Source: an uncultured Eubacteriales bacterium (lineage in GTDB: Bacteria; Actinomycetota; Coriobacteriia; Anaerosomatales; PHET01). From it: a DNA stretch of 64,000 bases. Positions within the stretch are counted from its first letter, which is position 1. Each line of letters starts with the position of its first letter. The position numbers and the translations under genes are program-made. Shown piece by piece: positions 3,390 through 54,528 of the stretch. The notes below the pieces were generated by a model that searched no databases, was not told the DNA's origin, and saw nothing but the letters and a program-made list of their open reading frames with translations. The stretch covers positions 28,572-92,571 of the forward strand of contig CAZBLH010000003.1 of assembly GCA_964492775.1 (NCBI GenBank), given 5' to 3'.

Positions 3390-3403
3390 GCCAGGTCCCC
3401 CTT

Positions 3404-28227: not shown

Positions 28228-28264
28228 CGATGCTCCTTCCTCCGGTTGCTGGCTACGCGCTTCC

Positions 28265-32144: not shown

Positions 32145-33991
32145 TGCGCCAGCATCTCCTCGGCACGCGTGATGTACGCCTCGGTGGCCGGATACGTGGC
32201 GCCAAGAGCCCGAGCACGAGCGATGCGCTCCGGCAGCGAGGCCGTATCACCCGTCACAATTGCGAGGTGCAGCTGCTCGGCGGCGAGGGAGGGCAAATCC
32301 GGGACAGCCTCCTCGGCGCGCTCGAGCAGGCCGCGCTCCCACGAGAAGTCGGTCTCGCCGAGCGACTCACCCTGACCCATGCCGAACGCCGCGAACTGCA
32401 CCAGGTTAGGCGCGAAGCCGGTGATGTATCCGGGAGCCGCATCCACGGAGGCACGCGCGGCGGCGAGTTCGTCCGAGGTCGCGGCGCCAATGAGCGCGAG
32501 ATCGATCCGGCGGCGCTCGTTCAGCGGCTCACCGGGGATGATACGAGCCGCACGCTCGACGCGCGCGACGTCGTCGGCAAGGCTTCCCTGGCCGGCGATC
32601 TGGCCGGCATCAAGCCCGAAGCCGCGCCACACGCCGTAGCCCCCGAGTGCGACCGCTAACACGAGCGCCACCCAGCGAAGCGCTCCAGATGCACCGAGCT
32701 CACGCTCACCCGCCGAAGAATGCGCTGGAGCAGCGATGGCAAACCCGCCGACGACGACGCCCAGCAGCCCTGAGGCAAAATGCACCGGTGTGACCATGAG
32801 CGAGAACAGGTACGCGGCGAAGCCGACCGCGAGACCGAGCCGCACGGTGTTCGCAGGTGAGTGAGGCGCCGGCGCAACCAACTCAGCCACTCGGCGAGTC
32901 CAGATCACGAGCAGTGCGACGAGAGCGGCCATGCCGAGCAACCCGAGGCGCGTGAGCGCCTCCCAGAGCAGCGAGTGCGGCGAGGGGGCGCTGAAGGCGG
33001 TCGGATCGCTACCGGCCCCCGCGATGTAGGCGAACACGCCGGGGTCGTACCGGTCGACCGCGAAGAACCGGTACCCTGCCGGGCCGAACCCGAGCACAGG
33101 CCGCTCGGCGACCATGCGCTGTGCGCCCTCCCAAAGGTACAGGCGCGTAGCCACTGTCTGCTCGGCGCCCGCGCCCTTCTCGGCATCGATGAGCCACGAC
33201 CCCAGGGCCGGGACCTGCACCAGCACGATCACCACGCACGCGAGTGCCAGGACCGCCGCCGCTGAGACGCGTAGCGCGCGGTGCCACGAAGTCGGCACGG
33301 GCAGCAGCTGCGGCCCCGCGACGCACGTGAGAAGCAACCCCATGCCGAGCATGAAGATCGCCGAGAGCCCCGCCGCCGCGTAGGCGAGGCCGAGCGCCAT
33401 GCCGAGTGCCAGGAGGTCGTAGGCGAGCGGGCGCTCCGAGGTCCTCGCCAGGCCGAGCGACACGAAGATGAGCGGCGCGAGGGCGGGTACCGAGTAGGCC
33501 GGGCTGCCGAAGGTGGTCACGAAGCCCTGGGTCCAGCGCCAGACGACCATCACCGCGATCAGCGCCGCGCCGGCGTACACGGTCCAGCGCATCGCTTCGC
33601 GCGTGTGCTCGCCCAGCGGGAAGCATGCAGCTACGAGAAAGACCGCCGGGTACGCGAGCCATAGCACGCCCGGCATCTCCCCGTAGAGATCGAACAGCGC
33701 CTGCTGCACAGGAAAGACGTTGCTCGCGAGCGAGAAGGCAGCCACCGCGAGCAGCCCTGCGATCCCAGCAAGCACGGAGCGCCTCGGCAGGCGCAGACGC
33801 GGTGCGAGCCACGCGGCAGCCGCGATCCACACCCCTGCTGTCACGAGATGCAGCGCCTGGGCGGCAGGCTGCGCCGGCAGGGTCACGACAAGCCATGCGC
33901 CAGGCGACAGGAACGCCGCGAGGACGAGCAGGGTGACGAGCCGGGGATCGAGACGCGGGCCGGAGTTGGACGGAGCTTTAGCCATGTTCAC
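32141..33991 (-). CDS. Wzy_C (O-antigen ligase-like) polytopic membrane protein with soluble C-terminal domain
   Basis: 616 aa. The Wzy_C core is RLYLWEGAQRMVAERPVLGFGPAGY...PSPHSLLWEALTRLGLLG. It has more than 10 TM helices. Confidence 0.78.
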   Translation of the reverse strand: MNMAKAPSNSGPRLDPRLVTLLVLAAFLSPGAWLVVTLPAQPAAQALHLVTAGVWIAAAAWLAPRLRLPRRSVLAGIAGLLAVAAFSLASNVFPVQQALFDLYGEMPGVLWLAYPAVFLVAACFPLGEHTREAMRWTVYAGAALIAVMVVWRWTQGFVTTFGSPAYSVPALAPLIFVSLGLARTSERPLAYDLLALGMALGLAYAAAGLSAIFMLGMGLLLTCVAGPQLLPVPTSWHRALRVSAAAVLALACVVIVLVQVPALGSWLIDAEKGAGAEQTVATRLYLWEGAQRMVAERPVLGFGPAGYRFFAVDRYDPGVFAYIAGAGSDPTAFSAPSPHSLLWEALTRLGLLGMAALVALLVIWTRRVAELVAPAPHSPANTVRLGLAVGFAAYLFSLMVTPVHFASGLLGVVVGGFAIAAPAHSSAGERELGASGALRWVALVLAVALGGYGVWRGFGLDAGQIAGQGSLADDVARVERAARIIPGEPLNERRRIDLALIGAATSDELAAARASVDAAPGYITGFAPNLVQFAAFGMGQGESLGETDFSWERGLLERAEEAVPDLPSLAAEQLHLAIVTGDTASLPERIARARALGATYPATEAYITRAEEMLAQ

Positions 33992-34069
33992 ATTCTACCG
34001 CACGAACAGGCGTTTTCGGGTATCGAGTGGTAACATGAGAAGGTTAGACTGGCCGGCTAGGAGTCGCCC

Positions 34070-35977
34070 GTGTCCGCTGCCCATAAGACGTCCTGGATCG
34101 CGCTCCTGTGTGTGATGGTCGCCGTCCCCACTGTCGTAGGCACTCTGCCGTTCGGGTACCAGTTCATGCTAAGCCCGTTCTCTTCCCCTGCAGTGCTTAT
34201 CCTCGGAGTTGGAGCCGCAGTATCCGTCATCGCCTGGGCCGTCGCGTGCCTTCGCGGAGAACTCGGATACCGACACCACTCGCTTATGCCCGTGGTGGGC
34301 ATCTTCGCCCTGATGGCGGGCCTCTCCACCCTCTTCTCGCTGGACCGCGACTACGCGTTCTTCGGCGACGGCGACGATCTGAACGGCCTCGCCGTGTACG
34401 TGCTCTGTGCTCTGCTTGTGCCCGTCACGGCCAGCCTCTGTTCGGGCTCACGGAGGATCCGGTCGCTCACGACCGCGGTGATCGCTTCGGGTGTAGTGGT
34501 GGGAGCTATCGCACTTCTCCAGCAGCTGTTCGGCGCTGACATCTTCCGCGAGATAGCCGCGGATCAAGTCGCCGAACTCGGCTGGCTGATATCGCAGGGC
34601 GCCTCGACTCTCGGCAACCCCGACTTCACCGGCACCTTCCTCGTGGCGCCGGCAGTGCTCGCGATCGCCCGCGCAATCGCATCCGATACGCGCGATCCGG
34701 CCGCCGCAGCCGTCGAGATCGCCCCTGCCGCCGTCATCTCGGGGGCGCTCGTCCTGACGCTGACCCGCGGGGCATGGCTCGGCCTCGCAGCGGGCGTTGG
34801 AGTGCTGCTCGCGATCACCATCGTCCGCAGCGGCAAGTCGGCTGCGCACCTGCGGCGCGTGGCCATCGCCGGCGCCATCACCCTTGCTGCGGTACTCGCC
34901 CTCGGGGGCTCCGAGATCCTCCGGCGCTTCCGAGAGCTCGCCGAGGGCGGTCTCGCAGGGCTCGCCGGACGCACGATCATCTGGTCCGAGACGCTGCGCA
35001 TGATCGCCGAGCGTCCCCTTTTGGGCACCGGCCCTGCTGCGTTCAGGCTCGGCTGGTACCAGGCACGCGAGGTTGCGGGCCTGATCGTCTCGGCTGACGC
35101 CTTCGCCACCGACGCGCACAACTACCCGCTCATGCTCGCGGCGACCATGGGCATCCCCGCCGCCGTCGCGCTCCTGTACGTGTGGATCCACGCGCTGGTG
35201 GACTCGAGGCGCCTCGTTTGGGGCGGCGAGGCCAAGGGGTCGATCGACTATCAGGGCTGGTGGGCCGCATCGCTCGCGCTTGCGGTCGCGCTTCTGACCG
35301 GCGTCGCCACCACGCCGGTGGTGCTACTGGTTTTCGTGGGGATTGGCGTGCTCCTGTCGCCTCTCGCGTCGCCTCCGGCCTCCTCCCCCGGCAGGCAAGC
35401 CGCGATTTCGTACCCGGCGGCCGCGATCGCGCTCGCGGCGCTTGTCGCGACCGGCGCGCAGGGGTGGGCGCATGTCGCCGCGCGCTCGGCGCTGAACGAG
35501 TCTCCGCAGGCGCTGTCCCAAGTGGCCGCATCGGTTCCGTGGAACGGCCACCTCGGGCTTCTCGCCGCGCAGCTGGAGGCCGCCGCGGCGCAGCAGGCCT
35601 TCGTCACCTCCGAAGACGGGCGCGACACCCTCGCGCGAGTCTTCGGACCACCCGCCGAGCGGCATCCGAACGATCCCGAGTTCGCGGCCTCATGGGCTGT
35701 CCAGCTTTTCATCGCCGGGGAAACGTTGGGCGATCGGGACTTGTTCACTGAGGGCCTCGAGGTCTCCGAGCGGGCGGTGAGGCTCTACCCGAACTCGCTC
35801 CGGCTGCGTACCGACCGCGCGCGGGCGTTGATCGCGTCTGGGCAGCCCGAGAAGGCGCTTGAGGAACTCCAGCGGTTCAGGGAGCTTGACGCTAGCGCGC
35901 CCGATGTCGGTGTGGTGCGCGGTTTGATCGACGATGCTGAGGCGGCCGCCTCCGGGGAGACGACCACGACGCCCTAG
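34070..35977 (+). CDS. Wzy_C (O-antigen ligase-like) polytopic membrane protein with C-terminal TPR-like domain
   Basis: 635 aa. LTRGAWLGL...GRTIIWSETLRMIAERPLLGTGPAAF...DAHNYPLML. The C-terminal 170 aa or so are helical repeats. It is divergent from 32141..33991 across a 78-bp spacer. Confidence 0.78.
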   Translation: MSAAHKTSWIALLCVMVAVPTVVGTLPFGYQFMLSPFSSPAVLILGVGAAVSVIAWAVACLRGELGYRHHSLMPVVGIFALMAGLSTLFSLDRDYAFFGDGDDLNGLAVYVLCALLVPVTASLCSGSRRIRSLTTAVIASGVVVGAIALLQQLFGADIFREIAADQVAELGWLISQGASTLGNPDFTGTFLVAPAVLAIARAIASDTRDPAAAAVEIAPAAVISGALVLTLTRGAWLGLAAGVGVLLAITIVRSGKSAAHLRRVAIAGAITLAAVLALGGSEILRRFRELAEGGLAGLAGRTIIWSETLRMIAERPLLGTGPAAFRLGWYQAREVAGLIVSADAFATDAHNYPLMLAATMGIPAAVALLYVWIHALVDSRRLVWGGEAKGSIDYQGWWAASLALAVALLTGVATTPVVLLVFVGIGVLLSPLASPPASSPGRQAAISYPAAAIALAALVATGAQGWAHVAARSALNESPQALSQVAASVPWNGHLGLLAAQLEAAAAQQAFVTSEDGRDTLARVFGPPAERHPNDPEFAASWAVQLFIAGETLGDRDLFTEGLEVSERAVRLYPNSLRLRTDRARALIASGQPEKALEELQRFRELDASAPDVGVVRGLIDDAEAAASGETTTTP

Positions 35978-35980
35978 CTG

Positions 35981-37252
35981 CTACCGCCTGTCAGGGTGGC
36001 ACATCGCGCAGGTGTTCGGGAACCACTTCTGCTTGTTGTGGCAGTCCTCGCAGCTGTTCACCGGCTGCCGCTGATGCTCTTCGCGCCAGCTACCGTCCTC
36101 GGAGTGCAGCGGCATGTCGAACTCGTGGCATCCGGCCCGGTAGCAGGAGCGTCGCTGCTCGGTGTGGCACTTGAAGCAGGTCTGTCCGCCGTTGTCCCAC
36201 AGGTCGACGGCAGCATCACGCATGTGACTGGTCACGTACTCGGCGGCATGTGGGAGCCTGACACCATGGCAGCTGTCACACGGGGCGGGATCATGGCAGC
36301 TGTAGCAGTCGGGGTTGAGCACGAGCTGGCGCGGCTCGGGATTCTGCTCGCTCCGGCGCCCCACGGCGGCCCGGCTCACATCGCCCGTATGGCACGTCTC
36401 GCAGCCTCCGGGAGCCTGATCGCCATCGTGGCAACGCAGACACGGGCCCATGCCCTCGATGACGCCGGTGACGTGCTGGTTGGAGTCGAGCAGGTGGCAG
36501 TCTTGGCAGGTCGCCCCCGCCTCAAGCGGCTCGCGATGCGACATCTGCAACGCGCGTTCCGGGTTCTCGGTGATACCCGTCAGGACCGCCGAATGGCACC
36601 GGGTGCAACCGCGCGACGTGCTCGCCCCGTAGCTGCCTGAGGGGTTCTCGGCGAACATCGCGCTCGTGATGTGGACCACACGGGGCGCCACCGAGATGGT
36701 GACGGCGGCCACGGGGTTGCCGGCTTCATGGCACCGGACGCAGGTCACGGAGGCGTGAGGGTCGGCGTCGGCCGCTGTCACGTGATCCGTGTCGTTGTGG
36801 CACGAGGTGCACACTGAGCGGCTCTGGGTGGTGACGCCGGTGGCGATGATGAGGAAGGCAGCCACGAACGCGGCCCACAGGAACCTCTTGTGGAAGCGCA
36901 GGGGGTCCTTCACCCGCTCGGCGGCGCGCACGGTCGACGGCGCGACCACGGCGCCCTCGCCCGCCCCCTGCAGCTCCTCGGATACCAGCACACGGGTGCC
37001 GTCTTCCCGAATGAGTACCTGGACCTCTTCTTCTTCCCTGACTCGCATCAGGAGCGCGACAACGCTCATGATCACCATCAGCAGGACCACGACGACGATC
37101 ACGGCCATGACGATAGCGGCCGGCTTGTTGCTGGCCGGGTCCCTCACGATTCCGAGGATTGTCGGCCAGAGGTTTTCGAAGAACTCCCGGTCAGGCACGC
37201 GGATCTCTGCAGTCGACAGAAGCTCAAACAGCTCCCTGAGACCGTCCATCAC
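35981..37252 (-). CDS. Membrane-anchored multiheme cytochrome c, 12 heme-binding motifs
   Basis: 423 aa with two hydrophobic helices (about aa 44-68 and 125-140). It has 11 CXXCH motifs plus one CX4CH (CYRAGCH). The start is GTG 37252 (GTGA overlap) or ATG 37249 (TGATG). Confidence 0.88.
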   Translation of the reverse strand: MMDGLRELFELLSTAEIRVPDREFFENLWPTILGIVRDPASNKPAAIVMAVIVVVVLLMVIMSVVALLMRVREEEEVQVLIREDGTRVLVSEELQGAGEGAVVAPSTVRAAERVKDPLRFHKRFLWAAFVAAFLIIATGVTTQSRSVCTSCHNDTDHVTAADADPHASVTCVRCHEAGNPVAAVTISVAPRVVHITSAMFAENPSGSYGASTSRGCTRCHSAVLTGITENPERALQMSHREPLEAGATCQDCHLLDSNQHVTGVIEGMGPCLRCHDGDQAPGGCETCHTGDVSRAAVGRRSEQNPEPRQLVLNPDCYSCHDPAPCDSCHGVRLPHAAEYVTSHMRDAAVDLWDNGGQTCFKCHTEQRRSCYRAGCHEFDMPLHSEDGSWREEHQRQPVNSCEDCHNKQKWFPNTCAMCHPDRR

Positions 37253-38205
37253 TGGGCATCACCCCCAAGCGAGACGGCGCCGCCCGGGTGCACGTGCTTC
37301 TCGTGGCAGGTAGTGCAGTCCTGCTCGGCATGGCAGCGCGAGCAAGACTCGTCGCCCTGTTCGCGCACGAGAGCGCTGTGTTCCTGGACGAACGCATTGG
37401 GGTGCGGCATCTCAAGGGTGTGACAGTCGTTGCAGAACTTCTGCTCGTGGCAGTCGCCACACTGGGCGCCGTTCGTCTGCGAGGTGGGGCCATGCAGTTC
37501 GAAGAACTTACTGTCGTGCGGTACCCCGGCACCGTGGCAGCGCGTGCAGTAGTCCTGCGGGTGACAGGCGCCGCACGTGGACATCGCGCCCATACCGTGA
37601 GTCGTTTCCCAGTTCGGGCCATGGGTGATCGCCCAGGGGCCGGTCGTGGGACGACGGCGGGAGTCGGCCGCCTGCGTATGGCAGGTCTCACACGAGGTAG
37701 AAACCTGCTTGACCTCGTGGCAGCGCAGGCACATGTCCATATGATAGGTGGTCGGCCACTTGATCGACTCGGCATGCGCGACGGTCGAGTGGCAGTCGGT
37801 GCACGCCGAGCCTTCTGCGCAAGACTCGTGCCGGATCCGAAGGCCGCGGGCATCGATAACGCCGGGCAGCTTCTCGTGACAGCTCCTGCAGGCAGCGTCG
37901 TCGACTCCGGCAACCGAGCTTCCCTGGGTATGGAGCACCGGAAGGGTCATGGCGTACGCCTGATAGAAGCCGAACTGCAGTCGCTCAGAGAGGCCCCTGC
38001 CGATGTGGCAGTCCTGGCAAGACGCCTCAGTGCCCGCGTGCGCGGCGACGTCAACCTCGGCGACCAGCCCCCTGCCTTCGTGGCATGAGACGCATCCCAC
38101 CGGAGCCGCGGCAAAGACGACGGGAAGCCCGGCGAACAGCACGAACGCGGCGACGAGCGCCCAAGGCGCCCACCGGACTATGCGTCGCGTAATCTCGGGA
38201 TTCAC
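37249..38205 (-). CDS. Membrane-anchored NapC/NirT/NrfH-like multiheme cytochrome c, 12 CXXCH motifs
   Basis: 318 aa. An N-terminal TM helix is immediately followed by CVSCHE, and there are 12 CXXCH in total (about one per 26 aa). GTG start with AGGAG 5 nt upstream. Confidence 0.88.
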   Translation of the reverse strand: MNPEITRRIVRWAPWALVAAFVLFAGLPVVFAAAPVGCVSCHEGRGLVAEVDVAAHAGTEASCQDCHIGRGLSERLQFGFYQAYAMTLPVLHTQGSSVAGVDDAACRSCHEKLPGVIDARGLRIRHESCAEGSACTDCHSTVAHAESIKWPTTYHMDMCLRCHEVKQVSTSCETCHTQAADSRRRPTTGPWAITHGPNWETTHGMGAMSTCGACHPQDYCTRCHGAGVPHDSKFFELHGPTSQTNGAQCGDCHEQKFCNDCHTLEMPHPNAFVQEHSALVREQGDESCSRCHAEQDCTTCHEKHVHPGGAVSLGGDAQ

Positions 38206-38385: not shown

Positions 38386-39645
38386 CTACTTCGTGGCGAA
38401 GTTGAGCGCCGCGGACCCACCGTGCGATCCGGTATCCTGCAGGCCGTGCCTGGGCCAGTACTTGTAGCCGTGGCACTTCAGGCAGGTACCGTCGTTGATG
38501 TTGCCGGCGTGACCATCGTGGAAGCCAGCGGCGTCGTCGATGACCTTGCGGCTCGGGTTGGTGGTACCGGTGGCAGACGGAGCGCCAGCGGTGTCACGCA
38601 TGGTCGCGTCGCCCGCATACATCCAGAGGTTGCCGCTTTCAACGGTCCTCTCGCTCGGCGAGCCGTCGGCCTCGGTCTCCAGGACGACGATGTTGCGGTT
38701 GGCGTGCGGGAAAGCACTCGAGTTGGTGGCCTTGCCCTTCATGTCGTGGCACGCGGCGCACTTGTTGTCGTTGGTCACGTGGCACGGACCGCAGCCGGAA
38801 GGCATGTTGGTGATGTGGCCGGTCATGACCTGGTCGAGCGTGGTGCTCGCCGCAGGCTTCGAAGCGCGAAGCTCGCCGTAGCCATGCTTGTTGACCGCGA
38901 ACTGCGAGGAGCTGTGGCAGCCGGCGGCGCCACACGTGTAGCCGGTGGCCATGGCCTTGGCAGTCGCGATGTCCTGAGGGGCGGTGCCGAGACCGTTGAA
39001 GAAGGTCGTGCCGTTGATCGCGGCGTAGGTCGCGTGCTTGTTCGAACCACCAGCGCCCGCGCCGGTGCTCTCGCTGACGTTACCAGCGCCGAACGCCTCC
39101 AAGATCGCGAGGTCGTTGCGGTTGGTCAGGTTCAGGGCATTGATCGCGCCGAACAGGGACGTGGTTCCGCCGTGAACGCCAGCGTGGCAGGCGCCCAGGC
39201 ACTGGAAGCTCGAGTGCGGGCCACTACCGGTCGGCGCCCACTCGACGAGAGCGGTCGACACGGGGTTGGAGCCCGACGGGGTGTGGCATGCGACGCATGC
39301 CTGGGCACCCGGGGTGAGCTTCCAGTACGTACCGACACCAGCGGCGGTCAGGTCGGACTGCGCGCGGTGGGCCGAGTGACACACGGCACACTTGGTGGTG
39401 TTGACGGCGTAGCCGCCGTGCGGGGTGTCGCCGTTGACGCTCGTGCCGCCGTTGTAGTTGGCCGAAATCGCGTTGGCGCCCTGCCAGGACAGATAGCCCG
39501 GTGCCGCGTTAACGGTGGAGGTCGCCGGGTCGCCGGCGAGGACGGGGTTGTTGTAGGCGTATCCAGCGTACTTCGCGAACGCGACCGTGCTGAAGGAAAG
39601 GACGAAGACGGCAGCGAGGGCGAAGACGAAGAGAGTCTTCTTCAT
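38386..39645 (-). CDS. Secreted multiheme cytochrome c, 7 heme motifs (paralog 1)
   Basis: ATG 39645 has AAGGAG upstream. An alternative ATG at 39693 has AAAGGAGG upstream. Sec signal peptide MKKTLFVFALAAVFVLSFSTVAFA|KYAGY. Motifs are CAVCH, CVACH, CLGACH (CX3CH), CGAAGCH (CX4CH), CGPCH, CAACH and CLKCH. The first pair resembles the doubled-CXXCH domain. Confidence 0.88.
   Translation of the reverse strand: MKKTLFVFALAAVFVLSFSTVAFAKYAGYAYNNPVLAGDPATSTVNAAPGYLSWQGANAISANYNGGTSVNGDTPHGGYAVNTTKCAVCHSAHRAQSDLTAAGVGTYWKLTPGAQACVACHTPSGSNPVSTALVEWAPTGSGPHSSFQCLGACHAGVHGGTTSLFGAINALNLTNRNDLAILEAFGAGNVSESTGAGAGGSNKHATYAAINGTTFFNGLGTAPQDIATAKAMATGYTCGAAGCHSSSQFAVNKHGYGELRASKPAASTTLDQVMTGHITNMPSGCGPCHVTNDNKCAACHDMKGKATNSSAFPHANRNIVVLETEADGSPSERTVESGNLWMYAGDATMRDTAGAPSATGTTNPSRKVIDDAAGFHDGHAGNINDGTCLKCHGYKYWPRHGLQDTGSHGGSAALNFATK
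38471..38764 (-). repeat. Near-identical nucleotide block shared by cytochrome paralogs 1 and 2 (C-terminal coding part)
   Basis: 38471..38764 aligns without gaps to 40052..40345. By eye, roughly nine of ten positions are identical. Weaker similarity continues to about 38950/40530. Confidence 0.85.
39169..39439 (-). repeat. Second near-identical block shared by cytochrome paralogs 1 and 2 (doubled-CXXCH region)
   Basis: 39169..39439 aligns to 40789..41066 with one 6-nt indel. A more diverged copy lies at about 55400..55700 in paralog 3. Confidence 0.85.
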
Positions 39646-39755
39646 GCTTGTTACTCCTTGTAGAGTCGAAGTAGAGATAGAAGTCTTTTGCATTCTTGCA
39701 CCTCCTTTCCAGACATGAATTTCTGACGGAACACACACAATTTCCATCACGGTAG

Positions 39756-39784
39756 ATACTACAGGCTCAAACGGCCGGGTGCAA
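39756..39784 (-). promoter_or_regulatory. Candidate sigma70-type promoter for cytochrome paralog 1 inside an AT-richer 336-bp spacer
   Basis: The minus strand reads TTGCAC-17 nt-TAGTAT, about 100 nt upstream of the start codon. The spacer 39646..39981 is visibly less GC-rich than its surroundings. Confidence 0.3.
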
Positions 39785-39936
39785 TGCTTTCTTTAACTAA
39801 TCTTAGCTTCGTTCATGACGGTAGCCGATGCGTCCCGATTGGTGGCAAGTCATCCTTATCGCTTCTGAACCTGCGACACCGTACCGGTCGTTTCTTGCGG
39901 ATCCACACCGCTCCCCTGGGCAGGCTCGGAGAATGA

Positions 39937-39966
39937 GGCGGGGTCGACCCTCAGGCCGACCCCGCC
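39937..39966 (-). terminator. Perfect 10-bp GC hairpin after the 14-heme cytochrome gene
   Basis: GGCGGGGTCG-N10-CGACCCCGCC starts 16 nt after the stop at 39982. There is no U-tract. Confidence 0.5.
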
Positions 39967-39981
39967 AGAGACACCAGACCC

Positions 39982-41733
39982 CTACCTGCGGGTGAAGTCC
40001 GTGACCGAACCGGCCGAGTGGTAGGCGTTCGGGCCGAAGTAGCCCATGCCATGGCACTTCAGGCAGGTACCGTCGTTGATGTTGCCGGCGTTACCATCGT
40101 GGAAGCCAGCGGCGTCGTCGATGACCTTGCGGCTCGGGTTGGTGGTACCGGTTTCAGACGGAGCGCCAGCCGTGTCACGCATGGTCGCGTCGCCCGCGTA
40201 CATCCAGAGGTTGCCGCTTGCAACGGTCGTCTCGGTCGTCGAGCCGTCGGCCTCGGTCTCCAGGACGACGATGTTGCGGTTGGCGTGCGGGAAGGCGCTC
40301 GAGTTGGTGGCCTTGCCCTTCATGTCGTGGCACGCGGCGCACTTGCTGTCTCGGCTTGCGTGACACGGCTCGCACCCGCGGATCATATTGGTGCTGTGGC
40401 CGGTCATGGCCTGGTCGAGCGTGCTGCTCGCTGCGGGATTCGATGCGCGAAGCTCGGCGTAGCCGTTCTGATTGACCGCAAACTGCGAGGAGCTGTGGCA
40501 GCCGGCGGCGCCACACGTGTAGCCGGTCACCATAGCGCGCATCACCGCCAGCCCCTGGTTTCCGCCGTACGAGTCGTTGGGCCCGAAGTCGTTGTCGCGG
40601 AACTCGTCCTCGTCGAACGATGCATAGTAGTCGTCCCCGTGTGACCCGCCGTTAGAGGCCACCGAGTCGGAGTTGGGCTGATTGTCGATGCTCGGAGCGT
40701 TGCCTGCGGCGAAGGCCGCTGCGAGTGCCGCATCATTGCGGGAGGTGAGGTTCCAAGCACGCACCGCTCCGTACTCGGAGGCCATCCCACCGTGAACGCC
40801 AGCGTGGCAGGCGCCCAGGCACTGGAAGCTCGAGTGCGGGCCACCCTGGCTATAGGTCGACGACCACTCGACGAGAGCGGTCGACACGGGATTCGCACCC
40901 GACGGGGTGTGGCATGCGACGCATGCCTGGGCACCCGGCGTGAGCTTCCAGTACGAACCGACACCAGCGGCGGCCAGATCGGACTGCGCGCGGTGGGCCG
41001 AGTGACACACAGCACACTTGGTGGTGTTGACGGCGTAGCCACCGTGCGGGGTGCTGCCGTTGACGGCTCCCGCGATCATGTTTGCCTCGGCCCATGTCAG
41101 ATACGGGTCCAATGAAGCGCCAGCGTAGTGTGCTCCAGGGTGACAGCTGTCACACCGCAGGTCGTCGGCGGCAATCGCAGCGATCACCTTCGGGTCCGTA
41201 CTGCTATGGCAAGCCCAGCAGTCGCCACCGTGCTCCGACAGGACGTCGGTCGTGTGGCAGTCGCCGCATGCGGCGTCGGGCAGGGCTCCCGTGTGAGGAG
41301 GGAACTCCCCGTGAGCCGGAGGAACCGAAGGACGAGAAGGATTGTGGCAGTCCTGACACTCGTACGTGCGGCTGGTGGTGGTGACGCCATCGGCGTTAAC
41401 CGTGCCGGGGATGAATGGATCCGAGTAGTGCCCCATCTGACCGGCGACTTCGGGCTCGTGGCAGTCCAGACACTCGTCATCCGACTGGACTTGACGGTGA
41501 TCGTCATAGTACGACGGACGTCGATTGAGCGGTTCGGTGCCGTATGGGTGACACGTCACGCAGTCGTTCCCGGCAGGGTGCGCGACCACGGTGTGACACC
41601 CGGCGCACTCCAACGCGAGCGCCGGAGCCGCATCAGCGATCAGCATGGTCACCGCGACTAGGAACAGTACGGCTACCACGACCGCCGTTCGAACGAACGC
41701 CCCTCGTTTGAGAGCTAGTGGCATCGTCATCAC
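39982..41733 (-). CDS. Secreted/anchored multiheme cytochrome c, 14 heme motifs (paralog 2 = 7-heme N-terminal module fused to the paralog core)
   Basis: 583 aa with an N-terminal hydrophobic signal/anchor (AVVVAVLFLVAVTMLIADAAPALA). Seven CXXCH lie in aa 40-200. From aa 201 or so (HYAGASLDPY..PHGGYAVNTTKCAVCHSAH) it is collinear with paralogs 1 and 3, including CLGACH and CGAAGCH. Confidence 0.88.
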   Translation of the reverse strand: MMTMPLALKRGAFVRTAVVVAVLFLVAVTMLIADAAPALALECAGCHTVVAHPAGNDCVTCHPYGTEPLNRRPSYYDDHRQVQSDDECLDCHEPEVAGQMGHYSDPFIPGTVNADGVTTTSRTYECQDCHNPSRPSVPPAHGEFPPHTGALPDAACGDCHTTDVLSEHGGDCWACHSSTDPKVIAAIAADDLRCDSCHPGAHYAGASLDPYLTWAEANMIAGAVNGSTPHGGYAVNTTKCAVCHSAHRAQSDLAAAGVGSYWKLTPGAQACVACHTPSGANPVSTALVEWSSTYSQGGPHSSFQCLGACHAGVHGGMASEYGAVRAWNLTSRNDAALAAAFAAGNAPSIDNQPNSDSVASNGGSHGDDYYASFDEDEFRDNDFGPNDSYGGNQGLAVMRAMVTGYTCGAAGCHSSSQFAVNQNGYAELRASNPAASSTLDQAMTGHSTNMIRGCEPCHASRDSKCAACHDMKGKATNSSAFPHANRNIVVLETEADGSTTETTVASGNLWMYAGDATMRDTAGAPSETGTTNPSRKVIDDAAGFHDGNAGNINDGTCLKCHGMGYFGPNAYHSAGSVTDFTRR

Positions 41734-41938: not shown

Positions 41939-43210
41939 TTATGAATCCGACAGGCTGTCCGCGAATGCCTGATTCTCGGCGAGCTCGGCCTGCCGCTGTG
42001 CACTTCTCTTGCGCAGCGCGCGCACGACGGCGACGACAGCCAGCACGAGCAGCAGCAACAGCAGCGGGATCAAGCAGGCCTTCAGCGGGCCGGACAGCAG
42101 GCGCCTAGCAGCGGCCGCGGCGGAGTCGCCCGAGTCCGGAACTCGGATGATCTGCGCACGCTGGTTGCCCGAGTCCGAGACCACGAACCAGTCATGGACA
42201 GCATCGTAGTCGATGTCGGCGGGGTACATGAACTTGCCGTCCTCGCGCCCGAACGTGCCCCACTTGCCCAGCACCGAACCGTCTTCCGTGTCGAATGCGG
42301 CGATGGAGAAGTCGAGCAGGTCGACGACGACCAGGCGCCCTGCCCCATCAATCGTGGCGCCCATGGGGGCCTGCATCATGGCCGGATACTCCTCTGCGAG
42401 CTTCTCTGCGTCGCCGGGGTCCATGTTGGAGCCCGCTCGGTTCGCCGGACGCCCGGTCTCGACGATCCAGACCCGCTCTCCTTCAGCGTCGTACTTGCTG
42501 ATCCGGTTGTTGAACGTGTCGACGATGTAGGCGTTGTTCTCATCGTCGAGCGCCACGCCATTGACGGTGTCGAACTGGTCGTCTTCAATGCCGCGAACGC
42601 CGATGATGCCGATGAGCTGTCCCTCGCGGTCGTACGCGGCGAACCCTGACTGGGCGCCGATGACAACCATCTCATCATTGGCCGCGACCGACATCGGACT
42701 CGGGATGTTGAGTGTCTGACGCAGAGTGCCGTTCTCGTCGTACGCCTTCACGGTGTTGTACGTCGACTGCACGACGTAGAGCCAGCCGTCAGGCGCGAGC
42801 GCGATGCGCGACGGGTAGTCGAACTTGTCCCCGTTGGCGGTGTCGCCCTCGAACACGCCGAGGTAGCGACCGTTCGCGTCGTACTTCACGATGCGGAAGC
42901 GTCCCTGGTCGGCAACCCAGATGGTTCCGCCTTCCGAAGGAATCGCGGCCGAGGCAGGCTCGGTCATCTGACTGATATCAGGCCCGTACCCGTAGATCGA
43001 ACGGATCCATGTCACGCCGCCGATCTCGTCGGCCTCGGGACCGTCGTTGTTCCCGAGAAGCTGGGTCAGCAGTCCGAAGGCGACGAGCAGGATGATGATG
43101 AGCAACGCCAGCAGAGCCGTCAGGATACGGCGACCTCGGCGCGACACGTACGCCTTGTTGTCCTGCGGCGGCTCAAGCACTACCGCCTGTTCGGAGATAA
43201 CAGGATCCAT
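41939..43210 (-). CDS. NHL-repeat beta-propeller protein with N- and C-terminal TM helices
   Basis: 423 aa. TM helices are at about aa 28-50 and 385-407. The region between has about 6 NHL-like blades (F.YP..IA...DG.LYV.D...N.V..YD..G). The ATG abuts the upstream TAG (TAGATG). Confidence 0.82.
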   Translation of the reverse strand: MDPVISEQAVVLEPPQDNKAYVSRRGRRILTALLALLIIILLVAFGLLTQLLGNNDGPEADEIGGVTWIRSIYGYGPDISQMTEPASAAIPSEGGTIWVADQGRFRIVKYDANGRYLGVFEGDTANGDKFDYPSRIALAPDGWLYVVQSTYNTVKAYDENGTLRQTLNIPSPMSVAANDEMVVIGAQSGFAAYDREGQLIGIIGVRGIEDDQFDTVNGVALDDENNAYIVDTFNNRISKYDAEGERVWIVETGRPANRAGSNMDPGDAEKLAEEYPAMMQAPMGATIDGAGRLVVVDLLDFSIAAFDTEDGSVLGKWGTFGREDGKFMYPADIDYDAVHDWFVVSDSGNQRAQIIRVPDSGDSAAAAARRLLSGPLKACLIPLLLLLLVLAVVAVVRALRKRSAQRQAELAENQAFADSLSDS

Positions 43211-44101
43211 CTACTTCTCAACTCCGATCTTCTTCAGGCCAGCGAGCGCTTCCTCGTAGTCAGGGATGAACCGGAGGGCTTCTCGGAAGTCCTTCTCGGC
43301 ACCCTCGGTGTCACCGAGTTCGGCCTTGGCGTTACCGCGCTCAACCAGAACCCCCGCCTCGCGAGGATGGTTGGCCAGGTACGTGTCGAACATCTCTACC
43401 GCCTGCTCCCACTTGCCGGTCTCGGCGTAGATGCCTGCCCGGCTGAGCGCGCTGAGATAGTAGTTCTGATGCCGGCCGTAGGCGACGGCCCAGTTCTGGA
43501 ACTCGCCGCCCTCCTTGTACTCCTTCTCGTAGGCCTCGTCCGTCTTCTTCATGACCTGCTCGAAGATCTTCGCGGCCTCGTTTAGCTCGCCCTGGGCCTT
43601 CTTGAGTTCAGCCTCGACGAACAGCATCTGGGATCCCTGAGACTGGTCGATTTTGTCATTGGAGTTGACTTCGTCGATCACGTCCTGCGCGCGCGAGAAC
43701 TCCTCGGCGGTGATCAGGGCCAGAACGTACGACTGGTACTGGTCGGCGTTGGCGTCCTCCTGCTTGACGGAGGACTCCCACCCCGCGAGATCGCGCTCGG
43801 CCTGGGTGCGCGGCGCCTGGTCAGGTCCGATGAAGCCGAAGAACAGCGCGGCGGCGACGGTCATCAGCGCGCCGACGACGATGAGAGCCGCCGCCCACCC
43901 CATGACTCGAACGACCGGGTCCTCCCAGATTGAACGCCGTCGTCTGACCGTGACGATCTGGCCGGTACCGGTAGCGCGCTCCGGGGCGGCCTGCCCGGCC
44001 TGCCCAGCGTCCACCGGCCCGAGATCCTCAGACCTCTGTGCCTCGTCCACCATCGAATACCTCCGCCTTCGAGTCTCACCCGTGCTCGCCTGAGCGCGCA
44101 T
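43211..44101 (-). CDS. Membrane-anchored TPR-repeat protein
   Basis: 296 aa. One TM helix (VMGWAAALIVVGALMTVAAALFFGFI) is followed by TPR-like helical repeats (AYGRHQNYYLSALSRAGIYAETGKWEQAVEMFDTYL..). Confidence 0.75.
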   Translation of the reverse strand: MRAQASTGETRRRRYSMVDEAQRSEDLGPVDAGQAGQAAPERATGTGQIVTVRRRRSIWEDPVVRVMGWAAALIVVGALMTVAAALFFGFIGPDQAPRTQAERDLAGWESSVKQEDANADQYQSYVLALITAEEFSRAQDVIDEVNSNDKIDQSQGSQMLFVEAELKKAQGELNEAAKIFEQVMKKTDEAYEKEYKEGGEFQNWAVAYGRHQNYYLSALSRAGIYAETGKWEQAVEMFDTYLANHPREAGVLVERGNAKAELGDTEGAEKDFREALRFIPDYEEALAGLKKIGVEK

Positions 44102-44136: not shown

Positions 44137-45261
44137 TCAGCTTCCTGCTCGGCCCGAAACCACATCGCGCAGCACGTCCGCTCTCGCCGCAGCGCGCGCC
44201 GTCCAGGAGCACTCCTCCAGTGCCGCCCGTCTGCCGCTGCGACCGGCCAAAACCAGTTCGTGCGCCGCAGCAGTGAGCTCGGTGACGCGGCGAGCGAGAT
44301 CGTCCGCATCGCCAACAGCGAAAGATGCGCCACATTCATATTGCTTCACGATTTCTTCAAGACCGCCGGTGTCAGCGACCACGACAGGCGTTGCGCAAGC
44401 CATCGACTCGTAGAGCTTCAGCGGCGAGAATCCCGTCTCCGCGCGCTCCGGGGCGTTGATAGGAATCACCGACACGACTGCGTTGGCGACGACGGATCCC
44501 AGCTTGGCGTAGGGGACGTGCCCGAGGTAGATGAGCGAATCGGGGTGGCGTTTGCTCGCCGCCTCGATCTCGGGTGTCAGGACCCCGTCGCCCGCCACCA
44601 CCAGAGGAAGATCGGCAGGCCACGTCTCACTCTCGAACGCGCGCACCAGCACCTCGATGCCCTGCCACGGTGCGAAGTTGCCGAAGAACACGGCGTAACG
44701 CTCGGGCAGCCCAGGGTAGCGTGGCGAGGTATCGCAGAAGACCTCCAGGTTCACGCCATTGGGGATCACCACCGTCGCCGCTCCGGGCGCCTGCGTGCGG
44801 ACCCATTCGGCAAGTCCCTGGGTCACGCAGACCACGCGCGCCGACATCGCGTACTGCGAGCGCTGCATGGCATCAAAGACCCAGCGCAGCGCCCGTGCCT
44901 GGGGCCAGGCAAGATAGAGATCGGCGTACGTCCCGTTGCACTCCTGCACGACGGGGATACCGCGACGGGAGGCTGCGCGCGAACACAGCCACGCGAGCGG
45001 ATGGCCGCGAACGTAGAGCGCGTCGTACTCGGCGAGATGCGCGATCAGCGTGCGCTGAAGCCGGAGCATCTCGGCGATTCGGCCAAGCGGCCCGGGAGCT
45101 CCGCCAGGGCCGTACTCGGGAAACCAGCGATCAACGACGATACCGGTCTCCTCGAGACCGGTGATGACCTCGTTGACCGCGGCCCAGCTGTCGAGGCCCT
45201 CCGCGACCTGCTGCAGGCTCAGGTATGCGATTCTGAGGGATTGACCCATTTCCTGCCCCAC
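44137..45261 (-). CDS. Glycosyltransferase family 4 (paralog of 26255..27382)
   Basis: 374 aa. LRIAYLSLQ...VVQECNG...SPLKLYESMACATPVVVAD is collinear with the module-A GT4. Confidence 0.85.
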   Translation of the reverse strand: MGQEMGQSLRIAYLSLQQVAEGLDSWAAVNEVITGLEETGIVVDRWFPEYGPGGAPGPLGRIAEMLRLQRTLIAHLAEYDALYVRGHPLAWLCSRAASRRGIPVVQECNGTYADLYLAWPQARALRWVFDAMQRSQYAMSARVVCVTQGLAEWVRTQAPGAATVVIPNGVNLEVFCDTSPRYPGLPERYAVFFGNFAPWQGIEVLVRAFESETWPADLPLVVAGDGVLTPEIEAASKRHPDSLIYLGHVPYAKLGSVVANAVVSVIPINAPERAETGFSPLKLYESMACATPVVVADTGGLEEIVKQYECGASFAVGDADDLARRVTELTAAAHELVLAGRSGRRAALEECSWTARAAARADVLRDVVSGRAGS

Positions 45262-45310
45262 GCGTCAGGGATTTCGGCCTGCACGATGGTATCACCCCTC
45301 GTGGGCTCGC

Positions 45311-46651
45311 TCACGCCGAGTCCGGCATCGCGCGGCGGCGGATGCCCTCGTCCGCGCCGGCTGCAAGGCCCAGGGTGAACAGGGTCGTGCAAGCGAACGC
45401 CGGCATGCTCGAAGCCGGCAGGGCCATCCCCGTCACCAGCCAGGCTACGGCGGTGAGCGGGCCGAGTAGAGGCGCGGAAGCGTACCTGCGCAAGCCAGTC
45501 CAGGCCAGTGCGAGCACGGCGACTCCAAGCAACAGAGGCCCGCCCCAGACAAGGCGCTCGAGAAAGTCGTTGTGGAGGGAGACGCCTGCGGCCCACTCCG
45601 GAGGCTGGAGCAAGCCGAACGGGTGCTCCCGCCACAGAGCAATGCCGATGCGCCACCGCGCGAGTCTGCCGGCGGTCAGTTCGTCTGCGGCAGTGATTCC
45701 CTGCTCGGCCGTCCCCGCCTGGACGACTGCCTCCACCGACCGATGCAGGGTCTCAATGCGCGGCATCACGACCACCGTGCCGAGAATGACGGTCACCAGG
45801 AGGAGGACCAGGAACGCCAGACGGTACCAGCTCCGTCCCTTGCCCCTCGCGAAGCTGCGGCGCCGGATCCAGTGCACCCCCGCGATCATGACGCAGACAA
45901 CCGACGCGATCAGCGCCGTCCTTGAGGCCGACAGCAGCACGATGCCGAGGCCGGTGAGCACAGCGGTCCCGCGGGTTCTCGGCTGTCTGCCGCGCCAGGT
46001 CACGCCCCAAATCAGCAGTACGACGCCGAGCGCACCGGTGAAGTTCGGATCGATGTCGAGCGCGGCCGTCCTGAAGGACTCGGTGGGGTCTCGTGTCCAT
46101 ACCTGAATCGCCGAGGGCAGGGCACCGTTCCATGCGGCGAGTCCCGAAGCGAGCGGATTGCCCAATCCGAGGAAGTCCAGACCCTCGGCCCCAGCGACGA
46201 TGAGCGTGACGATGCCCACGACCGCATACATCGGCCCCGGGTACCGGGGATTCGTGACACCTGCCGAGAAGCCGATGTAGATGCTCGCCGCAAGCGCCAC
46301 TGGGAGCAGGCCCGACTCCACGGAGTAGAGCAATGCACCAGCCGGACTGGACGCGTGTATCGCGCCCGTGAGCGCGCGGACTCCCACGTCTAACGCGACC
46401 AGAACCACCCACGGCCACAGAGCACGCGTTGACGCGAACGCGTGGGCGGCGCCTCCCGGAGCGAGCGATAGCAGGAACGCGGCGGCGATCACCAGCAGGG
46501 TCGTGACCCTGACGCTTCCATCGAGAAGCCACAGCCGGTTGGCAAAGAGTGCGTTCAGTCCTATGGCGGCGATACCGCCCACCTGCAGCACGTCCACCAT
46601 GCTCGGGCGTTGCGAACCGTTCATCCACGGCCTCGCGGGATTGGTTGACAT
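45311..46651 (-). CDS. Wzy_C-family membrane protein (O-antigen polymerase/ligase-like)
   Basis: 446 aa, about 11 TM helices. SASRTALIA...GRLARWRIGIALWREHPFG...SLHNDFLERLVWGG. It has no C-terminal soluble domain. Confidence 0.78.
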   Translation of the reverse strand: MSTNPARPWMNGSQRPSMVDVLQVGGIAAIGLNALFANRLWLLDGSVRVTTLLVIAAAFLLSLAPGGAAHAFASTRALWPWVVLVALDVGVRALTGAIHASSPAGALLYSVESGLLPVALAASIYIGFSAGVTNPRYPGPMYAVVGIVTLIVAGAEGLDFLGLGNPLASGLAAWNGALPSAIQVWTRDPTESFRTAALDIDPNFTGALGVVLLIWGVTWRGRQPRTRGTAVLTGLGIVLLSASRTALIASVVCVMIAGVHWIRRRSFARGKGRSWYRLAFLVLLLVTVILGTVVVMPRIETLHRSVEAVVQAGTAEQGITAADELTAGRLARWRIGIALWREHPFGLLQPPEWAAGVSLHNDFLERLVWGGPLLLGVAVLALAWTGLRRYASAPLLGPLTAVAWLVTGMALPASSMPAFACTTLFTLGLAAGADEGIRRRAMPDSA

Positions 46652-46795
46652 CGATTGTGAGTCCTTCGTTGCGAGTTTGCGGCCTCAGGCTGCGCCGCCT
46701 CAGGGACTGTTGTCAAGGTCACCCGCGGAGCAGGCCGGCCACGGAGCACGCGGGTGATACGATGCACGGCAGACTATGAGCGACCGAACGGGACC

Positions 46796-47920
46796 ATGAG
46801 CCGACTCCACATCACCCTGTGCACGCACCTTTTTCCCTCCGAGGTGACGGAGCTGTCCGGGCCGTGGCTCGCAGAGCAGGCGGACGCTCTCGCAGCTCGC
46901 GCCGATGTCTCCGTGCTCGCATGTCTTCGCCGCTGCCGAAACCGGGACGAGACGCGCGCCAGCGGCGTACGCGTGTTGTATCGGCAGACAGCCCTGGTGC
47001 CGGGTACTGGCCGGATTGCGCTGCTGGCTGCCGCGGTCCGGTACCGGGCGATCGCAGGTCGGCTCCTGGAGCGGCTCGATCCGCCGCCCCATGTGCTCCA
47101 TGCGCACTTCGGGTTCCCCGACGCCGTCGTGGTGGCAAGCGTCGCCCGACGGCTGGGGCGGCCCTGGGTCGCCACTCTGCACGGCGATGACGCGTTCTTC
47201 CTGTTACGGCGCCGTGATCCGCTCGGAGCGCTGATCCGACGGGCGCTCCATCAGGCTTCGGCGGTCGTATGTGTGAGCCCTGCGATGGGCGAAGCAGTAC
47301 GTGAGGTCCTCGGCGCGAACACCCAAGTGGAGATCATCGAGAACGGCTTCGACGACGCGCTGTTCGCACCCGGCGAGGGACCGGTCTCGGCGCGCCCGGG
47401 CGGCGTGCTGTTCGCCGGCACGCTCACGCCGGTCAAGAACGTCGACGTGCTCCTCCATGCCTACGCGTCCCTCGTGGACCCTCCCCCGCTCACGATCGTG
47501 GGAGACGGGCCTCTTCGCACGGCTCTCGAGCACCTTGCAGCTCAACTAGAGGTTGATGCTCGAGTCCTCTTTCTCGGAGTGCAGGGGCGCGAAGAGGTGG
47601 CGCGCCTGATGAGGGAGGCACGCGTACTCGTCATCCCGAGCGCCAGCGAGGGCTATGGGATGGTGGCGGCCGAGGCGCTTGCGTGCGGAACGCCCGTCGT
47701 AGCGAGCGATGTGGGCGGCCTGCCACGTATCGTGACCTCCGCTGAGGCGGGGGCACTGGTAGCGCCGGGCGACAGCGAGGCGCTTCGGGACGCGATCGAG
47801 TGCGTTCTCACGGCCGAGTGGGAGCCGAAGGCCGTCGCTGCGGCCTCGGGCGCGCGGCCCTGGCGCGAGCCTGCGCGGGAGCTGCAGGCGCTCTACGAGG
47901 ATGTTCTCAACGGGAGATGA
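46796..47920 (+). CDS. Glycosyltransferase family 4
   Basis: ATG 46796 (MSRLHITLCTHLFP). E-x7-E region is SEGYGMVAAEALACGTPVVASD. The track ORF begins at an upstream GTG (46754). Confidence 0.85.
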   Translation: MSRLHITLCTHLFPSEVTELSGPWLAEQADALAARADVSVLACLRRCRNRDETRASGVRVLYRQTALVPGTGRIALLAAAVRYRAIAGRLLERLDPPPHVLHAHFGFPDAVVVASVARRLGRPWVATLHGDDAFFLLRRRDPLGALIRRALHQASAVVCVSPAMGEAVREVLGANTQVEIIENGFDDALFAPGEGPVSARPGGVLFAGTLTPVKNVDVLLHAYASLVDPPPLTIVGDGPLRTALEHLAAQLEVDARVLFLGVQGREEVARLMREARVLVIPSASEGYGMVAAEALACGTPVVASDVGGLPRIVTSAEAGALVAPGDSEALRDAIECVLTAEWEPKAVAAASGARPWREPARELQALYEDVLNGR

Positions 47921-47961
47921 GCCGCCGGTGACGAGCAGCGCGGCATGCGCTCTCGCTGCCT

Positions 47962-50246: not shown

Positions 50247-50397
50247 CACGGACTTCGGGAACGCGCGGATGTAGGCGCGACGGGCAACCGCGAACCAACG
50301 CTCGGGCACTGCCTTCCTGATCAGACCCTGAACTCGAACAAGCACGTCCGCGATCCGCTCCCGAGACTCAACGAACCGCAGGCTGCGGCCCTTCAGC

Positions 50398-51750: not shown

Positions 51751-51811
51751 CTCCGCTGCGCGCATATCGGCACGTGTCTGCCGCGCGGACGCGAAGGAGG
51801 ACAGGGCGGTC

Positions 51812-53604: not shown

Positions 53605-53610
53605 GCCCGC

Positions 53611-54417: not shown

Positions 54418-54528
54418 AGCACCTGGCAGGTCGCCTGTCTTCGCGAGCATCAACCATGATTCTACTCGCGCGCGCGCCCGTTGCCGAACTATCAACCCAG
54501 ACAGCCCATTCTAAGGGACCGAATGCGT

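Follow-up and report, generated by a model that had tools for sequence, protein, structure and literature searches.

Organization of the cytochrome genes

The analyzed DNA (the window) is a stretch of 64,000 nt from contig CAZBLH010000003.1 of a metagenome-assembled genome (GCA_964492775.1) of an uncultured bacterium assigned to the Anaerosomatales (Coriobacteriia, Actinomycetota). Its minus strand carries three open reading frames (ORFs), named P1, P2 and P3, which encode collinear c-type cytochromes (Table 1). A core of seven haem-binding sites was common to the three proteins, with the order CXXCH, CXXCH, CLGACH (CX3CH), CGA[AS]GCH (CX4CH), CXXCH, CXXCH and CXXCH, except that the fifth core site of P3 was CX4CH (CSTGGCH). 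In total, P1 and P3 possessed seven CXnCH motifs each, and P2 possessed 14. Sec-type signal peptides were found in P1 (MKK...AFA followed by KYAGY, cleaved between AFA and K) and in P3 (cleaved between ASA and K), and this combination of motifs and export signals is that of multihaem c-type cytochromes. An earlier reading of the DNA (the original prediction) had proposed three collinear, secreted multihaem paralogues with CX3CH and CX4CH sites at fixed positions, and the present results agreed with it: the two unusual sites were the third and fourth in P1, P2 and P3, and a CX4CH at site 4 was nearly universal in the family described below. No further family member was detected in the 64-kb window by tblastn.

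The N-terminal extension of P2 (about 199 aa), which was absent from the original prediction, adds seven CXXCH motifs to the core. Similar N-terminal extensions were present at loci L007, L008 and L035, and extra N-terminal haem motifs occurred in the homologues P0013 and P0033. The ATG of P1 (position 39645) was preceded by an AAGGAG ribosome-binding site and a promoter-like TTGCAC-17-TAGTAT, and a G+C-rich hairpin lay 3' of the P2 stop codon.

Table 1. Coordinates of the cytochrome genes, their segments and the neighbouring genes in the window.
Feature	Position	Strand	Description
P1	38386..39645	-	Secreted heptahaem cytochrome, 419 aa, type 1; promoter-like site and Shine–Dalgarno sequence; identical to homologue P0001
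Probable conversion tract 1, P1 copy	38467..38955	-	Haems 6–7 and beta-rich C-terminal block (block D); partner 40048–40536
P1 loop	38959..39078	-	aa 190–229, 40 aa, 19 of them G/S/T/N
Probable conversion tract 2, P1 copy	39113..39439	-	Haems 1–3 (block A); partner 40733–41065
P2	39982..41733	-	14-haem cytochrome, 583 aa, type 2; N-terminal seven-CXXCH extension and seven-haem core
Probable conversion tract 1, P2 copy	40048..40536	-	Partner of 38467–38955 in P1; from repeat search, blastn and dS
P2 loop	40540..40698	-	aa 346–398, 53 aa, 11 D/E, isoelectric point (pI) 4.05; conserved in P0013
Probable conversion tract 2, P2 copy	40733..41065	-	Partner of 39113–39439 in P1; from repeat search, blastn and dS
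P2 N-terminal extension	41137..41733	-	About aa 1–199; signal or anchor segment and seven CXXCH, c7/c3-like
P3	54590..55885	-	Secreted heptahaem cytochrome, 431 aa, type 3; insertion of about 21 aa in C-terminal block; orthologues P0008/11/12/14/15
P3 loop	55238..55315	-	aa 191–216, 26 aa
Membrane-anchored 12-haem cytochrome (MHC423)	35981..37252	-	423 aa; conserved cluster partner
Membrane-anchored 12-haem cytochrome	37249..38205	-	318 aa; distant NapC/NirT/NrfH similarity; conserved cluster partner
NHL-repeat beta-propeller	41939..43210	-	423 aa; transmembrane-like segment at each end; PF01436 41.8 bits; conserved cluster partner
Membrane-anchored TPR protein	43211..44101	-	296 aa; conserved cluster partner
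Conserved neighbourhood of P3	55949..60411	-	Split-Soret-like 216-aa dihaem protein, 95-aa ORF, TPR protein (236 aa), RCC1/Big_5/CWB2 wall protein (876 aa)

Mosaic divergence of P1 and P2

The similarity of P1 and P2 was confined to two blocks of near-identical nucleotide sequence, as the original prediction had described. In the repeat search, 38467–38766 matched 40048–40347 at 96%, and 39224–39439 matched 40850–41065 at 93%. The blastn alignments extended these matches to the tracts of Table 1, with identities of 90.8% over 489 nt and 87% over 333 nt. The third-codon-position identity of P1 and P2, calculated in 20-codon windows, was 0.85–1.0 in the tracts and 0.35–0.55 in the centre and at both ends, whereas the P1–P3 and P2–P3 profiles were flat, mostly 0.4–0.65 along the whole length.

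The synonymous divergence (dS) was estimated by the method of Nei and Gojobori for blocks defined on P1 residues. Between P1 and P2, the dS was 1.17 in the N-terminal region (residues 25–62), 0.157 in block A (63–160, haems 1–3), 1.45 in block B (161–227, the loop), 0.43 in block C (228–300) and 0.092 in block D (301–392, haems 6–7). For P1–P3 and P2–P3, it was 0.8–1.6 in every block. The P1–P2 profile was thus uneven rather than flat along the gene, both in third-position identity and in dS. Furthermore, the longest run of sites concordant between P1 and P2 was 18, out of 440 that were polymorphic, and a Sawyer-type permutation test placed it (p < 1e-4) far outside what would be expected by chance.

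P1, P2 and P3 were aligned with the 18 closest homologues, and nearest neighbours were counted over 500 column bootstraps. In block A, P1 was nearest to P2 in 475 and P2 to P1 in 380 bootstraps, and in block D the two were each other's nearest neighbours in 500 of 500. In blocks B, C and E, the nearest neighbours were P0002/3/4 for P1 and P0013 for P2, and the pairing of P2 with P0013 was recovered in 498 of 500 bootstraps when the three blocks were combined. P1 was 86–92% identical to P0002/3/4 in block C, and its tail was 81–89% identical to P0003/4/6.

The uneven dS (0.09–1.45), the clustering of shared sites and the block-wise incongruence with the orthologues strongly support gene conversion between the adjacent genes P1 and P2, which homogenized the haem 1–3 and haem 6–7 blocks. 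On these distances P1, P2 and P3 are three old paralogue types, and the N-termini, the loops between haems 3 and 4 and the C-terminal tails of P1 and P2 are retained ancestral, type-specific sequence. In block D, both P1 and P2 were 76–77% identical to P0004 (type 1) and 63–64% identical to P0013 (type 2); since both copies were nearer to type 1, P1 was probably the donor of the haem 6–7 block. An older event may cover the haem 4–5 block (C). The simplest reason why the tracts stop at the loop is that a heteroduplex cannot extend across its indels and through sequence of less than 50% identity; each loop type is, in addition, under purifying selection. The original prediction had offered two readings, either gene conversion or a scaffold that was duplicated recently while one loop diversified. 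The permutation test and the block-wise neighbours favour the former, and the loop dS of about 1.45 speaks against the latter.

A short stretch of P1 (38453–38544) was also 87% identical over 92 nt to 54639–54730 in P3, round the last haem motif (AAGFHDGHAGNINDG.CLKCH). P1 and P3 lie 16 kb apart and are 68% identical overall; the 92-nt stretch could be a short conversion tract or reflect strong constraint.

The loop between haems 3 and 4

Between the CLGACH and CGAAGCH sites, P1 and P2 were unalignable over the 40–53 residues of the loop. The differing loop lengths of the three paralogues and the compositions that had been proposed (G/S/T/N-rich in P1, acidic in P2) were found as expected (Table 1). 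The term hypervariable, which the original prediction had applied to this segment, was not appropriate, because each loop type had its counterpart in other genomes. The P2 loop was 66% identical to that of P0013, from another metagenome-assembled genome, with a pN of 0.23 against a pS of 0.72, indicating purifying selection. The P1 loop was 55–57% identical to those of P0002/3/4 (pN/pS of 0.30/0.44 for P1–P0002), and the P3 loop was 60–72% identical to those of P0008/11/12/14/15. Between the paralogues, the loop dN/dS was 0.35–0.43, on a saturated dS. No sign of positive selection on the loop was seen, either in dN/dS between the paralogues or in pN and pS for P2–P0013 and P1–P0002.

Across the family, the stretch between haems 3 and 4 was the main indel region, with a length standard deviation (SD) of 13.8 residues, and the least conserved one, with a mean pairwise identity of 0.09–0.23; other variable stretches exist. 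The saturated dS of the loop (about 1.45) compared with 0.09–0.16 in the tracts indicates that the loop is old and not fast-evolving. Judged from these comparisons, it is type-specific and constrained. Its hydrophilic composition and the dip of the pLDDT at its centre are consistent with exposure at the protein surface.

Homogenization in other genomes

Similar patterns were observed between copies at other loci. At L004 (metagenome-assembled genome BF4_114), the genes of P0002 and P0009 were nucleotide-identical over 134 codons and then divergent (pS 0.36–0.71); the overall identity of 1331–2345 and 3003–3981, which includes the 100% identical block, was 86%. At L008, 4404–5462 and 6791–7846 were 93.4% identical over 1059 nt. 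At L019, 3405–4313 and 8314–9222 were 99.7% identical over 909 nt, with the copies 5 kb apart. As far as these alignments go, local homogenization of copies is a recurrent property of the family.

Properties of the cytochrome family

In scans of the three proteins, no Pfam or NCBIfam model matched the shared core above its cut-off. The P1 core scored 16.9 bits against Cytochrome_C7 (PF14522; cut-off 24.8), P3 gave no match, and P1 scored 17.9 bits against the MtrC/OmcA decahaem family (PF22113; gathering cut-off 30). P2 exceeded the cut-offs of PF14522 (44.1 bits) and Cytochrom_c3_2 (PF14537; 41.9 bits), with matches at aa 120–177 and 167–275, mostly within the N-terminal extension. P2 thus resembles the cytochrome c7/c3 arrays largely through its extension, whereas the seven-haem core was below every Pfam cut-off. 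PDB searches with a single sequence or a 79-member profile revealed no relative of solved structure, only chance or haem-motif matches, the best profile match being an insignificant one to a glucose dehydrogenase cytochrome (E = 0.004). Two AlphaFold2 models were obtained, the first with a pLDDT of 66 and the second, from 150 sequences, with a pLDDT of 80 and a pTM of 0.79; with neither did Foldseek return anything from the PDB at E <= 0.001.

The profile matched 933 representatives (at 50% identity) at E <= 1e-3 and 173 at E <= 1e-30. The named members and genome loci were almost all from uncultured Coriobacteriia or other Actinomycetota, and the distant members had six haems. On this basis, the proteins belong to an uncharacterized family of secreted c-type cytochromes, with six or seven haems in the core, whose members come chiefly from uncultured Coriobacteriia and other Actinomycetota. 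Among 79–150 homologues, the Cys and His of the motifs were invariant, as was CXXCHxxH at haem 1. Six His outside the motifs (76, 93, 144, 158, 277 and 314) were invariant or nearly so, and M342 and H400 were conserved only where the seventh haem was present. The number of these His matches the six universal haems, which favours bis-His electron-transfer haems over a catalytic site. A catalytic haem enzyme was also considered, and it was rejected because a sixth-ligand His was conserved for every universal haem.

In many larger members, the core was C-terminal and lay behind BspA-type leucine-rich repeat (LRR), Listeria-Bacteroides repeat, Big_13, Big_7 or PKD domains and c7-type arrays. The N-terminal haem arrays of these members also exceeded the PF14522 and PF14537 cut-offs. 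By domain content, the placement of the core behind LRR, Ig-like and haem-array domains is a surface-display architecture.

Conserved gene cluster and expression

The genomic context was surveyed by tblastn of the window proteins against 49 genome loci and L001–L003. A conserved module was found, with the order TPR protein, NHL propeller, one to three family cytochromes and two 12-haem membrane cytochromes. L001 and more than 25 of the 49 genome loci carried the module, either whole or truncated where the contig ended. One module lay on a 2.67-Mb Coriobacteriia chromosome, where the protein in the cytochrome slot was only about 30% identical to P1. In hydrophobicity scans, the NHL propeller and the TPR domain were predicted to be outside the membrane. 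The window locus also has the features of an OmcS-type neighbourhood, namely an adjacent NHL-repeat protein and tandem paralogous cytochromes. The two membrane cytochromes of the window (35981–38205) were mutually paralogous, with 12 haem motifs each, one of them CX4CH in MHC423; together with P1 and P2, the cluster contains 45 haem sites.

The module could be connected with published expression data. In Coriobacteriaceae sp. EMTCatB1, an organism of a methane-producing biocathode, the cluster (L044) was matched by gene order to genes 1d0123–1d0127, followed by leuD (1d0128). The slot protein 1d0125 (L044 9905–11092) matched the family profile over its full length (77.8 bits). In the biocathode transcriptome, 1d0125 reached about 10,900 transcripts per million (TPM), against 270 and 152 TPM for the membrane cytochromes, 100 for the TPR and 86 for the NHL gene (PMC7943316 supplement). 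The slot cytochrome was thus expressed 40–100 times above its neighbours, and with the circuit closed it ranked within the top 10% of transcripts (PMC7943316). That paper draws no connection between 1d0125 and the conserved module.

The cultured Anaerosomatales have a G+C content of 66–68% and 17–18 multihaem cytochromes; one of them, Parvivirga, is an obligate Fe(III) reducer with 17 (PMC9686372). A cytochrome cluster common to both isolates is described as two 'quinol-oxidising' multihaems and an 'MtrA homologue' (PMC9686372), and it may correspond to the module found here.

Probable role in electron transfer

We conclude, with a probability of about 80%, that P1, P2 and P3 are old paralogue types, that P1 and P2 have been partly converted, and that they have a role in Gram-positive extracellular electron transfer. 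The family cytochromes would most likely be the outermost carrier of such a chain. P1 and P2 occupy the variable slot of the cluster. The two dodecahaem cytochromes would take electrons out of the cytoplasmic membrane and pass them to the secreted cytochromes, which in turn would exchange them with an acceptor or donor outside the cell, for example an electrode, a partner cell or an Fe(III) mineral. The extension of P2 may serve as an extra seven-haem, c7-like wire that adds reach across the cell wall, with P1 presumably under its own promoter. The extracytoplasmic NHL and TPR proteins would serve to retain the secreted cytochrome at the Gram-positive surface or to assemble it there.

Several points weigh against this explanation. 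No family member has been characterized biochemically, and the localization, haem occupancy and electron-transfer role are all inferred. A cell-wall anchor (LPXTG, CWB2 or SLH) was absent from P1, P2 and P3, which leaves the retention at the surface unexplained. The Anaerosomatales isolates reportedly have no detectable quinones (PMC9686372), so that the entry point of electrons into the membrane cytochromes is unclear. As for the conversion, the direction of transfer in block A is ambiguous; moreover, the sequences come from metagenome assemblies, and the 100% identical L004 block could be an assembly artefact.

Two other origins of the mosaic were weighed. The genes might have been duplicated in tandem recently, after which diversifying selection would have changed one surface loop rapidly; the 91–96% identity of the P1/P2 tracts would point to this, as would the loop itself, which is less conserved and more variable in length than any other segment of the family (identity 0.09–0.23, SD 13.8). 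A recent duplicate would, however, be low in dS throughout, whereas the loop, N-terminal region and tail had values of 1.2–1.5 against 0.09–0.16 in the tracts. Furthermore, every loop had a recognizable orthologue in other genomes, a dN/dS of about 0.3–0.4 gave no excess of replacements, and the 199-aa extension of P2 was shared with other type-2 proteins. This origin is already contradicted and highly improbable, and it was rejected on the saturated loop dS. The mosaic might also be an artefact of metagenome assembly, either a chimeric join or a partial collapse of two paralogues or strains, since the window belongs to a metagenome-assembled genome and short-read assemblers can make blocks like the perfectly identical 400 nt between the tandem copies at L004. 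The tracts of the window were, however, 87–96% and not 100% identical, which indicates that both copies were resolved independently, and with differences of 4–13% they cannot be an artefact of the identical-block kind. Both reading frames were intact with all haem motifs present, and the same pattern, with different boundaries, recurred in several independent assemblies. In addition, the intermediate dS of block C (0.43) suggests conversion events of different ages. An assembly chimera is therefore extremely improbable; it was rejected on the non-identity of the tracts and the recurrence of the pattern in independent assemblies.

With regard to function, the family might instead consist of nanowire subunits analogous to OmcS. 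P1-type proteins would then form a head-to-tail polymer, which a P2-type base might prime; the seven-haem wire of that base would cross the cell wall, and the NHL and TPR proteins would be the assembly machinery or platform. If so, conversion of the terminal haem blocks would preserve identical, and hence compatible, head and tail interfaces in P1 and P2 as they co-assemble, and the loop would decorate the filament surface, facing solvent or mineral. Conversion affected precisely two haem blocks, the N-terminal one and the C-terminal one, and a cell-wall anchor was lacking. The invariant CXXCHxxH at haem 1 is a lead only, the subunit-bridging His of OmcS lying in the same kind of motif. To our knowledge, no cytochrome nanowire has so far been known from the Actinomycetota. 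The 40–100-fold higher expression of the EMTCatB1 slot cytochrome and the promoter-like site of P1 also fit a filament subunit. In Geobacter, omcS is flanked by the gene of the NHL-repeat protein GSU2505, on which the assembly or expression of OmcS has been suggested to depend (PMC9070056), and omcS, omcT and oscC are paralogues in one osc operon (PMC13194489). Moreover, Parvivirga forms pili-like appendages only with ferrihydrite (PMC9686372). Against a filament, neither the PDB profile search nor Foldseek with the pLDDT-80 model detected any resemblance in sequence or fold to OmcS, OmcE, OmcZ or the archaeal filaments. An approximate OmcS sequence scored 11 bits against the family profile through its haem motifs only, which is no evidence of homology. 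The core was often fused behind 400–1000 aa of Ig-like, LRR and haem-array domains, an architecture that fits a terminal module better than the subunit of a helical polymer. In Desulfovibrio ferrophilus, non-filament cytochromes of the outer membrane likewise have NHL propellers beside them (PMC5815863). Polymerization is thus considered unlikely, and the family is nevertheless a testable candidate for a monoderm cytochrome filament.

The role as outermost electron carrier is of interest because, compared with Geobacter or Shewanella, extracellular electron transfer is far less understood in Gram-positives. The subsurface, termite guts and biocathodes all harbour uncultured Coriobacteriia (OPB41/Anaerosomatales and relatives), a widespread group. 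What is new here is a sizeable unannotated family, a conserved five-gene module and the link to published electrode expression data. With its place near the top of gene expression in an electrode-grown actinobacterium, the EMTCatB1 member makes the family a concrete candidate for the outermost carrier in these organisms. The mosaic is an ordinary, but clean and recurrent, case of concerted evolution in respiratory surface proteins, and it calls for caution in phylogenies and orthologue assignment of multihaem cytochromes.

Comparison with known systems

OmcS possesses six CXXCH haem sites. The family differed from it in its haem number, which is seven (six in distant members), in its CX3CH and CX4CH sites at fixed positions and in its spacing. 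The original prediction had compared the haem density of the paralogues with that of OmcS. Mature P1 and P3 indeed had 56–58 residues per haem in the core, but the density is not diagnostic, because cytochromes that do not form filaments have a similar one. The NHL neighbour is the one genuine parallel to OmcS. Like the products of the osc operon of Geobacter sulfurreducens, the family members are secreted multihaem c-type cytochromes of about 400 aa with several paralogues per operon (omcS, omcT and oscC there), an NHL-repeat neighbour (GSU2505 there) and a likely high abundance relative to their partners. NHL repeats are too widespread for the similarity to GSU2505 to be diagnostic. No sequence or fold homology was detectable in a PDB copy that should include OmcS, OmcE and OmcZ. 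Furthermore, the host here is a monoderm actinobacterium without an outer membrane, and the partners are two membrane-anchored dodecahaem cytochromes and a TPR protein.

The cytochromes OcwA of Thermincola potens and those of Carboxydothermus ferrireducens are similar in being proposed terminal electron-transfer proteins at a monoderm surface that work with membrane-anchored multihaem cytochromes. The Gram-positive surface-cytochrome model has been invoked in the papers on the Anaerosomatales and EMTCatB1 (PMC9686372, PMC7943316). However, no match to OcwA was obtained by Foldseek or in sequence and profile searches of a PDB copy that should include it. In addition, the present family differs in occurring mainly in Coriobacteriia and other Actinomycetota, with conserved NHL and TPR partners.

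The P1/P2 patchwork of near-identical tracts and divergent, type-specific segments was similar to the concerted evolution of tandem surface-protein paralogues in bacteria; the dS varied more than 10-fold along the pair, and the phylogeny differed from block to block. Unlike in such systems, no evidence for silent cassettes or phase variation was seen here, P1 and P2 being full-length and probably expressed, and the divergent segment was conserved among orthologues rather than diversified.

Genes surrounding the cytochromes

Envelope-glycan genes surround the cytochrome cluster on both sides (21225–35977 and 44137–54495). Four of them encode Wzy_C (O-antigen-ligase/PglL-like) proteins, at 24247–26274, 32141–33991, 34070–35977 (with a TPR domain) and 45311–46651. 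The region also contains GT2 and GT4 glycosyltransferases, a flippase and PglF-like and DegT-like sugar-modifying enzymes. Two Wzy_C genes likewise followed the membrane cytochromes at L001. The S/T/N-rich cytochromes might be glycosylated, or the association with Wzy_C might be plain synteny.

Next to P3, the 216-aa split-Soret-like dihaem protein (one CX4CH and one CXXCH) scored 49 bits against NF047622, far under the cut-off. It is preceded by the 95-aa ORF, which has a Tat-like SRRQWL signal, and the same two-ORF order was found upstream of the P3 orthologue at L002 and L003. The two ORFs (55949–56902) could be a naturally split gene, or the smaller could encode a Tat-targeted partner. The 876-aa surface protein (57781–60411) consists of an RCC1-like propeller, two Big_5 domains and three CWB2 repeats, and it may tether P3 to the wall. 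The RCC1/CWB2, TPR and split-Soret-like genes were conserved beside P3-type cytochromes at L002 and L003, and at L006 the RCC1/CWB2 gene was the only one of them near the cytochrome.

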